A stretch of DNA of 63,419 bases, the filler included, from Basidiobolus ranarum (taxonomy: Eukaryota): the NCBI GenBank assembly GCA_040143965.1. It is 53 parts of 53 records of this genome, joined end to end, with 100 filler letters (N's around TTAATTAATTAA, not from the genome) between each part and the next. Parts side by side here need not be neighbours in the genome. Positions count along the whole stretch, not along the records: positions 12,021 to 13,121 come from JASJQH010013304.1; 52 more parts are not named here. One strand, given 5' to 3'. Every line of letters starts with the position of its first letter. Position 1 is the first letter of the stretch. The notes beneath the pieces are model-generated. The model was not told where the DNA came from. It did not search any database and saw nothing but the letters and a program-made list of their open reading frames with translations. Below, one piece after another: positions 12,021 through 32,419 of this stretch. A program made the translations under genes and the position numbers.

Positions 12021-13121
12021 TTCATAAAAAATAAAAAATCCTTAGTTAAAGTTACGTTTACGAATTATTTAAACATGAAAAATTTTGTCAAGCACACCAA
12101 TCGTTCCTTATGTCATATGTATGAACTTGAGTGTATTCCTGTTCTTACATCCAAGTTTGGTTTAGATTTTGTCGGATGGGTAAATGTCAAAGATGCTTAC
12201 ACTAAGCCAGGCGATGATATTACTAACTTAAGTACTTATCACGTTTCTCATCCTAATAAAATCTCTCCCACCGATGGCAACGATCCAACATTCCCAACAG
12301 TCCTGGCTTTTGATATAGAATGTATGGTTTCTGCAAAATCTGGAATGCCAAAAACTTATAAACCAGGTGACAAAGTCGAGATGATTAGTTTGGTTATGAC
12401 CAAATATATGTCTGGTAAAATGGACAAATATCTTCTTTTTATTGGAAACTCACAGTTCGATGATGCTGCCTACGAAGATGTTACCCAACTTTTTTTTCCG
12501 ACCGAGTTAGAACTTCTTAGGGCTTTTTGTTCGATGATAAAAGAATTAGACCCAGATATAGTTACTGGATATAACATTTACGGGTTTGATTACAAATACA
12601 TATTCGAAAGATTAAGCTTTTATTTGGAGCCACTTCAGAATATGTCAAGATTAAATAATGGTACGACCAGACTAGTCAGCGTAGATTGGGAAAGTAGTGC
12701 TTATGGACATAATACGTACAGCAAAGTCGAGATGGATGGACGTCTGGTTGTTGATTTGATGCTTTACTTTAAACGTTTTAAATTGGAAAAGTATAGTTTA
12801 AACTTTGTTTCCGAAAAGTTTCTGGGTGCTGGCAAAGATGATGTACATTATGAAGAAATATGGGATGCGTTTGAGTCCAGGGATCCATCTAAGATGAGTC
12901 TCGTTGGAAAGTATTGTGTCAAAGATTCTGTTTTAGTTATCCAACTATTTGAAAATTTTAATTTGTGGACTGATCTTTGCGAGATGTCTAAGGCTATGCG
13001 ATGCAGGATTGGGGAAATTTACACTCGGGGTGAACAACTTAAAGTTAAAAATCAGACCATCAAAGAGTGTATTAACAGGAACATAGTTCTTGCTCGAATT
13101 AAGCGCACGAATGTTACCTGG
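12021..13121 (+). CDS. polB: Family-B DNA polymerase, 3'-5' exonuclease region, NCLDV (iridovirus/Pimascovirales)-like; open at both ends
   Basis: 367 uninterrupted codons, no introns; ExoI LAFDIEC, ExoII VTGYNIYGFDYKY, ExoIII VGKYCVKDS; WESSAYG..DGRLVVDL; YTRGEQLKV. Confidence 0.9.
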
Positions 13122-18025: not shown

Positions 18026-19125
18026 GGGTGCCCCCCATCTTTCGATGGGGGGGTCTTTAGATGGGGGGGGGTCGGCACTGGAAGGGGCAAACCGAGACCC
18101 CACCCCGGTGGTGGGAGTAGGGGGGGTCAGTAATCGGTAGAGCCTGCCAGGGGTTGGCCTCCCGATAGGGGGGGGGGCCACACCAAAACCAATGGGGCGA
18201 AGGGATCGAAGCGAGGGGGATCGAGGGGGGGGGAAACGTTAATCCATTCGGGGGTGCAGCCAGGGGAAAGCATCTCTCCCCCAAAGTCCCCCCCGCTTTG
18301 GGGTGGGGGCGGGGGGGGGGTGATAAAAGAGGGGGGAACCCCCGGCCGGAGGGGGGGGCAATTCCCGGGGTCGGTATTCGGGAACCCACTGCTCCCTTCG
18401 CATTGGCGATCGTGGAGCCCCGGTTTGGGGGGGGGGGGACGAGAACTAAAAATGCCCCCCCTTTGGTGATGCTTCGCATTGGGGAAGCGCTCCTCGCCAA
18501 TCATATATTGTACCAATCAACTCCCGGACTTTCCTAAAGCTTGGCTCCCTCTCCTCATTGCCGGTTACGCACCGTTAAATGGCCAAGAAGTGGCCCTCAC
18601 TTCGGGCTACGCACCCCGCCATTTTGCAATTGGCTCTTTCTTCCACCCATTGACCGGAGGGTGGACTCAGCCGGTAAATTGTTCCTCCTCCTGCCCCCGA
18701 TCACACCCATTCTGAACTGGGCTCGCCCAGTGGGTGAAAGGATCAATCCGGGGAAGCCCTGCAAATTGCCTCTCCTTGCTGGATGGGGGGGGGTTCCCGC
18801 CCCCCCCCCGATCCCTTTGGGGTGGCTCCCCCCGTGGTTCATTCGGGGTTAAGCCAGCGATAAGCCCGAAGGGGCCAATGCAGTTATTGATCCTTCGGGG
18901 GGCAGATTGGCGAAATCCACCATCCCCCCCCCCCAAAAGGGGGGGGGGGGGGGGGGGGGGGGAGCACCAGCCCCCCCCCCCCCACCCGCGGGGGCCCCCC
19001 CCCCCGGGGGGGGGGGGGGGGGGTGATTTGCCGTATTTCCGCGATCACCATGGTGAGGGTTGGCCTTTACAGGGCAATCGGGGCGAACTCTCCTTTATTC
19101 CCCAATCTCTGCTGGGGGGTTATTC
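18026..19125. other. Very GC-rich non-coding contig of G/C homopolymer runs and hairpins, probably mitochondrial intergenic DNA
   Basis: Same composition as the atp9 flanks at 31221-32319; hairpins such as CCCCCCATC-TTTC-GATGGGGGG (18031-18052). Confidence 0.55.
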
Positions 19126-22857: not shown

Positions 22858-23925
22858 CTATTCTAGATACACTTGCTCGTAGGCATATTCATCTGGGTTT
22901 TTAGTACCAATAACAATTGTTATTATTGCCATTACTGTGCTCAACAATGGTACATATGTATGCGTTTTTAAAGCCAATATAATCCCTGTATAAGTTTGCG
23001 ATAAATCTCCTATCGCATGTCCAAGTATTTGAAAATATCCTTTCTCAAATCTCAGGTTTAACATGTAAAACATTGCTGATATAATTGCTGCAGTAAAATG
23101 CAAGACAACAATTGTATCCATATATCCAATTACAATCATCCATATTAATACAAATGCATCGACTAGAAAATCTAAAACCCAGAAATATTTGTATACAGCT
23201 TGTTTCCACCCTCTTTTTATTTTTAGTGTTATAAACAATACAAGTAAGGCCAACACTATTACTAATGTTATCCAATCTCCATAGACTGGCCCTCTTGTAC
23301 AATCTGTATTGCAAAGCTGCCTCCACGGACTGTTCAAATAATGTCTGTCACATATAATTGGATTATGTTTTACACTACAAGAAACTAAATTTTTTGGTGG
23401 ATCCGTTGTTGGAAATCTTCTAATATTATTATTATCAAGATTTAACGTTCTTGTATTCGGAGGAAATTCTACTTCTTCCAACGCATTATCTTTAAACACA
23501 AACGTCTTTATATCTTGATTTTCTAAAAATATTTTTGGAACCCATTTTAGTTTGTTTTTACCAATATAAAAAGATCTGTATGTTTGACTAACATGCTCCG
23601 TATTAACTAGTTCTAATTCCTCTATTTGGTTTCCAGAAATTTTGTCCAAATTAGATAAACGAACTCTTGCTTTACCCGATATCAAATTATTCTTTAAACT
23701 ATAAGAAAAATCAAATCCATCATCAGGTATAACTTTTTTGGGTTTCCACGGTTCCCATCTTGAATTGTCTTGAATACGTTCTATTAAAGGTCCTTTAATA
23801 AAATTATTATCCAAGTCTAAACTACCTTTGAAATTTGGATCAACAGTTGAAATACTACCCGTAATACTATTATTTTTTAACGATATTTTCAAGTGGACTC
23901 CTTTGTCTGTATTTTTGTTGACGAA
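22858..23925 (-). CDS. Leucine-rich-repeat protein with a C-terminal multi-pass membrane region, 5' truncated
   Basis: LRR units (SLDLDNNFIKGPL, TLNLDNNNIRRFP, VKHNPIICD cap) followed by 4-5 hydrophobic segments; 355 open codons, no introns. Confidence 0.8.
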   Translation of the reverse strand, partial: FVNKNTDKGVHLKISLKNNSITGSISTVDPNFKGSLDLDNNFIKGPLIERIQDNSRWEPWKPKKVIPDDGFDFSYSLKNNLISGKARVRLSNLDKISGNQIEELELVNTEHVSQTYRSFYIGKNKLKWVPKIFLENQDIKTFVFKDNALEEVEFPPNTRTLNLDNNNIRRFPTTDPPKNLVSCSVKHNPIICDRHYLNSPWRQLCNTDCTRGPVYGDWITLVIVLALLVLFITLKIKRGWKQAVYKYFWVLDFLVDAFVLIWMIVIGYMDTIVVLHFTAAIISAMFYMLNLRFEKGYFQILGHAIGDLSQTYTGIILALKTHTYVPLLSTVMAIITIVIGTKNPDEYAYEQVYLE

Positions 23926-30310: not shown

Positions 30311-31699
30311 TGTTTAGTTGAGGGTTTGGGATAACGGTATAAAATAAAGAAAACTTGGTAGAGTAGCTGGATGAAGCTAGTAATTATGTAGCGCTTAATT
30401 TCCTCGTAACTCCCACTCTATCCTGAACAAAAATCAATCGCTTGCGTCACTGACAAATCCTCAGAGCGATTTAGCTAGCATAGAATGACCATCTAAATCA
30501 TGAAGATTTTAATCAAGATCACACAGATCACTCGTATATCAGAGTACTTTGAGCAGCCTTTAACTAACTAATCCTTAATCCTAATGATTTTCTGATGTTT
30601 CTTGGTTAAGAGTTAGCATTGACACCATGATTCGGAAAAAAAAGGAAAAAAATCGCAGTGTAATAGCTGTAGGTTGGCTCAAGTATATACCTTTGAGAGA
30701 GAACAGTGTAAAGAGCATACAAATTAAAGAAACATGGAGCACCCACCAATTCAATTTGCTTGTATGTATAAGGAAACGTGATACCCTCTCTGTGATTCCT
30801 TACTAACCGTAGTGTTGTTTCCTTCTCTTAAGATCGTTCTATCAACGAACTTGGAATCACCAATGGCCCACCCAGTGTTAAACCTTTCGAAGCTTTCGAA
30901 AAGTAAACATTTTATTCTTTTAACTGGAAATATTTCCCATTACTCAGTCGCAGCATTTAACAAATTTTCTTTTCCTCTCGAAAAGGCAGGTAGGAAGTGT
31001 TAGAAATTTCAAGTATAGCAAGGATGGAAAGTTCCTTGCTTGGGCCACTACCGACTCGTGAGTAGTTTTATTTACGTTGGTATAGTGAGCTTGGAAGTTA
31101 ACTTGTTGTAGGGTAAAGGTNNNNNNNNNNNNNNNNNNNNNNNNNNNNNNNNNNNNNNNNNNNNTTAATTAATTAANNNNNNNNNNNNNNNNNNNNNNNN
31201 NNNNNNNNNNNNNNNNNNNNGGTCGTAAGGGCAAAGGGATCGGGGGGGGGGCGAAGCACAGGGGGGGGTTTTACCCCCCCCATGGGGGGCCCACCCACAA
31301 TAAAAAAGAGGGAAAAAGGGGGGAAGAGCCAGGCCGAGGGGAGTGATTTGATCAAATCAAATGTGGCAAGAGGGGGGACTAGAGGGGGTTCGCAAATGAT
31401 GCCCCCCCAACTTTTTAAGCGGGGGGCCGATTACCCCCCTCTCTCCCCTCCTCCCTGCCCGAAGGGACCAAGGGGGGGGGCCAAGTGGCTCCCCCCTCCC
31501 GATACCGTCCCCCTGTGCTTCCCCCCTCGGGGGTGGGCAACCCCCCCCTCCCCTCTTCGGGAGGGGGGGGGTGCGAGGAGGGATCGAAAGGCCAAAGGAA
31601 TCGGGGCCCCCCTGCTGGGAGCCCCTTTGGAGGGGCAAATGGAAGGGGGGGAGAGGTGAACCGGGAGGGATAGCACGGGGGGGCCTTCGGCCCCCCTAG

Positions 31700-32011
<312 letters not shown>

Positions 32012-32419
32012 TGAGTGATCTACATTCGTAGGGGGGGGGGCAGCAATATTTTGATTCCTCCCCCCCCCCTTGTCTGAGGGGGGGGGCATCTCTCCCCTTC
32101 CTACCCGGCTCCCTGGGTGGGGGTAGGTATTTAGCCGGGGAAGGATCACCCCCTCCCTCCCCCCTCAAAGAGGGAAAGGGGGGGGGTTTGATAAGGGGGG
32201 GGGCTAGGGGGGGTGGAAAGCTTCTTCCCAGCTCCACCTTCCCCCCACTTCGTGCTTCCCCTCCCAGGGGGCAGCACCCAAGGGAAAAAGGAGGGGCCCT
32301 CTTTGGCTACCCCCCCCCGNNNNNNNNNNNNNNNNNNNNNNNNNNNNNNNNNNNNNNNNNNNNTTAATTAATTAANNNNNNNNNNNNNNNNNNNNNNNNN
32401 NNNNNNNNNNNNNNNNNNN

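Follow-up and report, generated by a model that had tools for sequence, protein, structure and literature searches.

The nearest known counterparts of the DNA considered here, a fragment of a family B DNA polymerase (PolB) gene in a stretch of 63,419 nucleotides (the window) from the Basidiobolus ranarum assembly GCA_040143965.1, are the 'fundsalphaviruses', endogenous elements resembling nucleocytoplasmic large DNA viruses (NCLDVs) that were found through PolB in 14 fungi of six phyla (Gong, Zhang & Han 2020, Virus Evol 6:veaa008; PMC7017919). Their hosts include Basidiobolus meristosporus, Basidiobolus heterosporus, Bifiguratus adelaidae and Mortierella elongata, and their common neighbouring genes are D5, a D6/D11 SNF2 helicase, a SAM methyltransferase, RPB2, RPB5 and a split RPB1; stop codons, frameshifts and long host contigs were reported for these elements, and in the published DNA polymerase tree they adjoin Pithovirus sibericum, with moss sequences nesting inside the group (PMC7017919). 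For the NCLDV-like regions of the moss Physcomitrella patens, the original report (Maumus et al. 2014, Nat Commun 5:4268) lists a DNA polymerase, D5, an SNF2 helicase, RP1, RPB2, RPB5, FEN, UDG and a capping methyltransferase, gives the major capsid protein and the packaging ATPase as lacking, describes the copies as silent, heavily methylated and clearly integrated, and considers that the parent genomes were perhaps extraordinarily small. Later papers treat the moss and fungal sequences as NCLDV-derived pseudogenes. In our literature search the term 'fundsalphavirus' was not found beyond a single publication, and no paper was found that joins 'Basidiobolus' with 'Nucleocytoviricota'.

The window consists of 53 contigs of about 1.1 kb each, with N/TTAATTAATTAA spacers between them, and the polymerase fragment occupies a separate contig of 1101 nucleotides (positions 12021-13121) flanked by such spacers. 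We consider it very probable, on the strength of sequence comparison, that this contig belongs to the NCLDV-related lineage of the fundsalphaviruses and the moss regions. The features on which the following argument draws are these (A1 denotes the alignment with 16 full-length relatives):

12021-13121, plus strand: open frame of 367 codons, supported by translation, Pfam, colinearity with the 16 full-length relatives and tblastn
12075-12077, plus strand: internal ATG, the start in the public gene model P0132; the relatives' homology already begins at 12024
12309-12320, plus strand: Exo I, FDIE, residues 97-100; D98, I99 and E100 invariant in A1
12573-12590, plus strand: Exo II, NIYGFD, residues 185-190; N185, F189 and D190 invariant in A1
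12912-12929, plus strand: Exo III, YCVKDS, residues 298-303; Y298, C299, D302 and S303 invariant in A1
13023-13046, plus strand: TRGEQLKV, residues 335-342, a conserved segment past the exonuclease domain; aligns with 'ARGQQIKV' of yeast Pol delta (3iay)

Frame 1 of the contig has no stop in 367 codons, 18 of which precede the ATG at 12075, and translation in this respect bears out an earlier note on this DNA, made from the window alone, which had described the whole contig as one open frame; when the contig was shuffled 1000 times by single nucleotides, the longest open frame had a mean of 75 codons and reached 137 at most. When relatives were searched onto the window with tblastn, coverage extended over 12024-13121. 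The frame runs off both ends of the contig and, being colinear with the 16 full-length relatives, has no sign of an intron, again as the earlier note had stated. Since homology to the relatives begins upstream, at 12024, the ATG at 12075 is internal and not where translation truly starts. The public protein P0132 (source name: hypothetical protein, Basidiobolus ranarum) is 100% identical across 77% of the frame, and its last 28 or so residues depart from the frame that homology supports, probably through a spurious splice or predicted intron; a second public source labels the identical protein 'DNA polymerase delta catalytic subunit'.

Pfam DNA_pol_B_exo1 matches residues 47-262 of the predicted protein (P0001) with E=1.8e-34 and 119.6 bits (cut-off 23), and to judge from this domain and its motifs the contig protein is a family B DNA polymerase with N-terminal and 3'-5' exonuclease domains. 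Exo I is defined as DxE, Exo II as Nx2-3[FY]D and Exo III as Yx3D, and FDIE of Exo I supplies the Asp and Glu that are catalytic in proofreading. The motifs quoted when the contig was first noticed are all present (WESSAYG at residue 223, YCVKDS at 298 and TRGEQLKV at 335). The contig protein keeps 52 of the 55 positions that are invariant among the 16 relatives and 77 of the 87 that are conserved in at least 14 of them, and by this measure the half of the gene on the contig is well preserved. Polymerase motifs A (DxxSLYPS), B (KxxxNSxYG) and C (YGDTDS) are present in 16 of 16 full-length relatives. Because the contig spans only residues 23-376 of the 768-residue relative P0002 (its start corresponds to residue 77 of P0213 and P0234), the true start and the polymerase domain with motifs A, B and C are predicted to lie off the contig, which on that alignment holds about half of the gene; the term 'intact', applied to the polymerase in the earlier note, says more than a fragment of this extent can show.

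The best full-length matches are PolBs of 738-835 residues, namely P0002 (53% identity, 423 bits), P0003 (46%) and others near 40%, and over the clade of compact polymerases to which they belong the contig protein scores 235-423 bits. Against solved structures it scores 103 bits with yeast Pol delta, 95 with human Pol delta, 94 with the herpes simplex polymerase, 39 with Pol zeta and 27 with Pol alpha; the top structure is yeast Pol delta 3iay (E=1.9e-28, residues 74-359), human Pol delta giving E=4.3e-26. An exhaustive HMMER search brought in P0242, a partial protein of 177 residues, about 90% identical to the contig protein (160 of 177 residues) and lying, according to its source name, on a 33,329-nucleotide contig of Basidiobolus meristosporus CBS 931.73.

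For the phylogeny, exonuclease-region homologues were excised from 86 sequences with a hidden Markov model; a quick tree took Pol zeta as its root, and a careful maximum-likelihood tree was computed from 62 rows of 354 columns each, leaving out, for speed, Pol zeta and 23 second-tier rows (two of them long-branched). In the careful tree the contig protein pairs with P0242 from B. meristosporus (100/100), and the pair joins P0002 and P0003 (100/99). A compact clade of 43 rows (100/100) takes in the contig protein, all the named fungal sequences, the Spirogloea sequence and the PolBs (L002, L003) of the two IMG/VR contigs described below, and outside it fall the herpesvirus polymerases (careful tree) and Pol zeta (quick tree). 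The protein is accordingly placed, as far as sequence can place it, as a PolB of viral type and not as a cellular Pol delta or Pol zeta, which agrees with the earlier note (423 bits to P0002 versus 103 and 39).

With a profile built from the compact PolBs, 972 proteins were recovered at E<=1e-10; the 120 matches listed are all full-length, with scores of 938-1184 bits. Among those 120 matches the contigs that carry clade PolBs reach about 95 kb and no more, and the word 'giant' in the earlier note goes further than contigs of this size show. Members without inteins are mostly of about 710-890 residues and end just past the thumb, and the listed proteins longer than about 950 residues are mostly intein-bearing; in the precomputed Pfam lists of clade members there is no zf-C4pol, unlike in Pol zeta P0119. 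Named members come from Mortierella sp., Linnemannia elongata, Clydaea vesicula, Bifiguratus adelaidae and the alga Spirogloea muscicola. P0012, P0153, P0162 and others carry inteins (PF14890) or long inserts right before the DTDS of YGDTDS, and these inteins and inserts point to actively propagating lineages. The Spirogloea entry, P0249 (from eukprot; a zygnematophyte alga), is an 834-residue gene model inside the compact clade whose N-terminal part looks unrelated; an integrated copy modelled as a chimera is a possible explanation. Other searches added little: among the best 80 of 570 relatives in a metagenome scan, L020 was the sole compact-clade member used (42% best-segment identity), the other 79 loci being more distant PolBs at 25-34%; a single-sequence scan of viral contigs with the contig protein gave one stretch that matched the pattern and none that was confirmed, a profile being needed; and the ESM Atlas yielded for the contig protein nothing but generic clusters of PolB exonucleases, drawn from all domains, which do not discriminate.

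Set beside the described systems, the fragment resembles the fundsalphaviruses in having been found through a family B polymerase, in sharing a 100/100 clade with proteins named for three of their host taxa, and in that the identical set of neighbouring genes is seen on the contigs of its relatives; it differs in having no stop or frameshift in 367 codons, where the published copies are disrupted, and in that integration in B. ranarum, a species absent from the 14 host species of the main text, is presumed. The moss regions are alike in the same dense gene core, here on relatives' contigs, and in the streptophyte alga Spirogloea having a sequence (P0249) in the compact clade; according to the moss report the copies there are heavily methylated, whereas the fungal fragment retains its CpGs. 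The nearest cultivated virus, by the published tree only (PMC7017919), is Pithovirus sibericum. Unlike Pithovirus, the relatives found here have compact genes, on contigs of at most 95 kb among the 120 matches listed. The Pithoviridae are placed within the Pimascovirales, and if that placement is accepted the published tree would lend support to the broad Pimascovirales affinity (iridovirus/marseillevirus) that the earlier note had read from motifs. With Pol delta (3iay) the protein shares its fold family, the Exo I-III motifs and the correspondence of 'RGQQIKV' to 'TRGEQLKV', but its score with Pol delta is 103 bits against 423 within the clade; compared with Pol delta, clade proteins are shorter by about 300 residues and have no C-terminal metal-binding domain. 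Nucleocytoviricota-derived DNA is also on record from other early-diverging fungi, as a persistent giant-virus infection of zoosporic fungi (Mycodnaviridae) and as an Asfarviridae-like region of 1.5 Mb in Rhizophagus irregularis; these are different lineages, the Mycodnaviridae forming a separate clade and the Rhizophagus region being Asfarviridae-related, and the accessible text on either makes no mention of Basidiobolus. The Mriyavirus group was ruled out, being without PolB and RNA polymerase. The contig is a member of a lineage already described, and other members had been recorded from its genus before: what the earlier note called a 'poorly described fungal NCLDV lineage' holds in substance, but it is in print, two other Basidiobolus species included (PMC7017919), and the core inference of that note is right, its novelty overrated.

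The genes around the relatives' PolBs were examined on a complete 35,106-nucleotide IMG/VR contig and on positions 2640-51666 of a 51,666-nucleotide IMG/VR contig. Beside PolB, both encode a D5-type primase-helicase, Rpb2 and an Rpb1 split into N and C parts, together with a capping-enzyme/methyltransferase, an SNF2/DEAD helicase of 850-870 residues, UDG and an XPG/FEN nuclease; Rpb5 was seen on the 35,106-nucleotide contig. About 15 genes are common to the two contigs, in partly conserved order, and the same replication/transcription cluster stands beside PolB on a 24-kb metagenome contig; IMG/VR as a whole offers virus contigs of 17-52 kb with this dense gene core. The NCLDV hallmarks of replication and transcription (PolB, D5, multisubunit RNA polymerase, capping enzyme) are thus found in environmental members of the clade, and in the window PolB only. 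Since the relatives' PolBs stand among NCLDV replication and transcription genes, the origin from a large double-stranded DNA virus of NCLDV type that had been proposed for the contig gains support. No capsid, packaging-ATPase or VLTF3 Pfam family was found in 18 open reading frames (ORFs) of the 35,106-nucleotide contig and 31 of the longer one (2640-51666), and a search for Capsid_NCLDV in a 17-kb record gave nothing, its control being likewise silent; the capsid and packaging genes of the relatives could be divergent or lie off the contigs. A PDB sequence search with ORFs of unknown function from the relatives gave no match for any of three.

Several further features of these contigs deserve mention. 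A DUF5757 protein of 625-775 residues, conserved on both contigs, adjoins the RNA polymerase genes (L016, 4717-7044, plus strand; L019, 3273-5150, plus strand); no mention of DUF5757 was found in the literature search, and the ESM Atlas gave no usable match. The 51,666-nucleotide contig has in addition a lysozyme, a GNAT protein, a second helicase and a MutS-HNH protein, the last being a 917-residue MutS with a C-terminal HNH nuclease (L100, 774-3527, plus strand, of this 51.7-kb contig). MutS combined with HNH is an architecture of mimivirus-type giant viruses. A discrete genome of about 35 kb, which might be read from the many clade contigs of 33-37 kb, is unsupported, other clade contigs reaching 60-95 kb, and the 35,106-nucleotide contig has no terminal direct or inverted repeats. 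Nor did the 17,169-nucleotide IMG/VR record L013 hold up as a molecule bounded by inverted terminal repeats: its 145-nucleotide arms contain a repeat that is also found internally, it lacks the Rpb2-D5 segment that follows PolB in a close relative, and the apparent terminal repeat is probably an assembly break at dispersed repeats. The intergenic regions of L013 (1-17169) are rich in one short family of inverted repeats, with 13 pairs of at least 30 nucleotides.

Base composition separates the PolB contig from most of the window. Its CpG observed/expected ratio is 0.90 (31 CpG), whereas 43 of the 53 contigs are depleted in CpG, with a median ratio of 0.06 and an excess of TpG (1.32) and CpA (1.35); such loss of CpG with an excess of TpG and CpA is the signature of methylation-driven decay. 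The depleted contigs hold copia- and gypsy-type domains (gag, protease, reverse transcriptase, RNase H and integrase), heavily mutated at CpG, and retrotransposon pieces account for nine of the window's ten longest frames. Nine further non-depleted contigs have a median ratio of 0.71. Because the contig at 45592-46688, which encodes a RAM2-like prenyltransferase with the prenyltransferase alpha-subunit repeat and has only short open frames, consistent with introns, stands at 0.94, the retention of CpG marks the PolB contig off from the repeats and not from host genes; the contrast drawn in the earlier note survives against repeats (0.90 versus 0.06) and is not confirmed as a mark of foreignness. 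Three environmental PolB genes of the compact clade have ratios of 0.77-1.20, and the more distant giant-virus PolB L004 has 0.55. The GC content of the PolB contig, 35.6%, lies inside the host range.

As to how the fragment came to be in the assembly, we think it probable on balance that it is a well-preserved endogenous viral element in the Basidiobolus genome. We favour an endogenous state because the published elements carry stops and frameshifts and lie on long host contigs, and because the contig is no longer than the host contigs that surround it in a fragmentary, length-sorted assembly and has a host-like GC of 35.6%. Integration in the host, and any present activity, are what we infer here, next to a gene family, exonuclease motifs, a clade and a neighbourhood of relatives that are observed. 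Several points weigh against this view or against the placement beneath it. There is no host-virus junction on the PolB contig; the absence of a stop, the near-complete set of invariant residues and the CpG ratio of 0.90 are also expected of a live virus or a very young insertion; and an old, methylated insertion should have lost its CpGs, because host repeats are stripped of CpG and the moss regions are heavily methylated. The argument from GC is weak, the relatives' own GC spanning 34-51%. None of 319 ORFs from the relatives' loci matched the other 52 contigs, which are a tiny sample of the assembly (a separate comparison of the window with viral loci gave one marginal match beyond the PolB contig, E=9e-5). 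The rows of the trees contained no labelled NCLDV or Pol delta sequences, and the match to the fundsalphaviruses would be one by species and gene set, the correspondence of P0242 to the published locus being unconfirmed.

The features that fit a young insertion fit equally another member of the same lineage, either an extant virus or a virus-derived episome without a capsid, that persistently infected the culture and was co-sequenced without being integrated, and we hold this to be possible though doubtful. It would account for the uninterrupted frame, the 52 of 55 invariant residues and the intact Exo motifs, and for a CpG ratio within the range of the environmental PolBs (0.77-1.20) and far from that of host repeats (0.06); the lineage is alive in the environment (972 proteins, inteins, contigs to 95 kb among the 120 matches listed, IMG/VR contigs), and persistent giant-virus infection of fungi is reported for another lineage, the Mycodnaviridae. 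A replicating virus, however, usually gives high depth and long contigs, and here there is a 1.1-kb piece like those of the host; the published view for fungi is one of pseudogenised nuclear insertions, and the B. meristosporus homologue stands on a 33-kb contig of a genome assembly, annotated only as a partial protein of 177 residues. Contamination from another organism or from environmental DNA unrelated to the fungus could be argued from a lone 1.1-kb contig with no host sequence joined to it, from two contigs in the window with foreign-looking GC (64% and 59%) and from the nearest full-length relatives, P0002 and P0003, coming from sequencing-run assemblies. We regard it as improbable nevertheless: the 90%-identical, 100/100 sister comes from an independent assembly of another Basidiobolus, the next relatives being at 46-53%, such a genus-specific pair in two assemblies is unexpected by chance, and the GC of 35.6% matches the host contigs. 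That the gene is the host's own Pol delta or Pol zeta catalytic subunit would agree with the Pol delta label of a public source and with yeast and human Pol delta as the best solved structures, but it is hardly credible given 235-423 bits to the compact clade against 95-103 to Pol delta, and 39 to a Pol zeta that falls outside the clade in the tree. Clade proteins of about 710-890 residues moreover end past the thumb with no C-terminal zinc finger in the precomputed Pfam lists, the genomic neighbours of the relatives are viral, and the fragment is intronless where the host genes in the window show short open frames.

The contig holds approximately the first half of a gene for a compact family B DNA polymerase that depends on a primer. 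This PolB, in the parent virus, would have copied a linear double-stranded DNA genome together with the D5-type primase-helicase, and transcription would have been carried out by the virus's own multisubunit RNA polymerase, capping enzyme and SNF2 helicases, as in cytoplasmic NCLDVs; an endogenous element in B. ranarum would be shared with, or related to, that in B. meristosporus. We suggest, as a rather unlikely extension, that the moss and fungal 'fossil' lineage is an extant, unusually compact relative of the giant viruses, or a capsid-less cytoplasmic element derived from one, and that the Basidiobolus copy is still functional; a conserved core of some 15 replication and transcription genes would then fill only tens of kilobases, no NCLDV capsid module being recognizable there, and the PolB fragment would be a piece of such an element. 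A further idea is that a fungus-associated lineage of this kind might be a natural donor of the NCLDV-derived RNA polymerase, helicase and capping genes found in the cytoplasmic killer-plasmid-like elements of fungi.

Elsewhere in the window, an Rfam scan of its whole length matched no family. On the minus strand at 22861-23925, an open frame of 355 residues fills nearly its whole contig (GC 31%, CpG ratio 0.76); on inspection by eye, leucine-rich-repeat-like repeats can be made out in it, with several hydrophobic segments after them, and it gave no Pfam match and no match to the viral loci. The contigs at 18026-19125 and 31221-32319 have GC contents of 64% and 59%, against 31-42% elsewhere, and their longest frames are without a Pfam match; foreign DNA (bacterial?) or an unusual region of the host may be the explanation.

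Taken for the window alone the result is modest: the public name (Pol delta, or hypothetical protein) is misleading, the public gene model is faulty, and both can now be put right. No fungus is known to have yielded a DNA virus of this lineage in isolation, and the lineage is known only as presumed genomic fossils in fungi and moss; with the well-preserved B. ranarum copy the Basidiobolus species on record rise to three, and there is a sister pair specific to the genus, which could date the insertion or show co-divergence of virus and host. The comparison also connects the 'fossils' in print with environmental genomes of full length, represented by contigs of 35-95 kb with the same dense core and no recognizable capsid genes, and so bears on the question, raised in 2014 in the moss report, whether the parents were NCLDVs of exceptionally small size (Maumus et al. 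2014).

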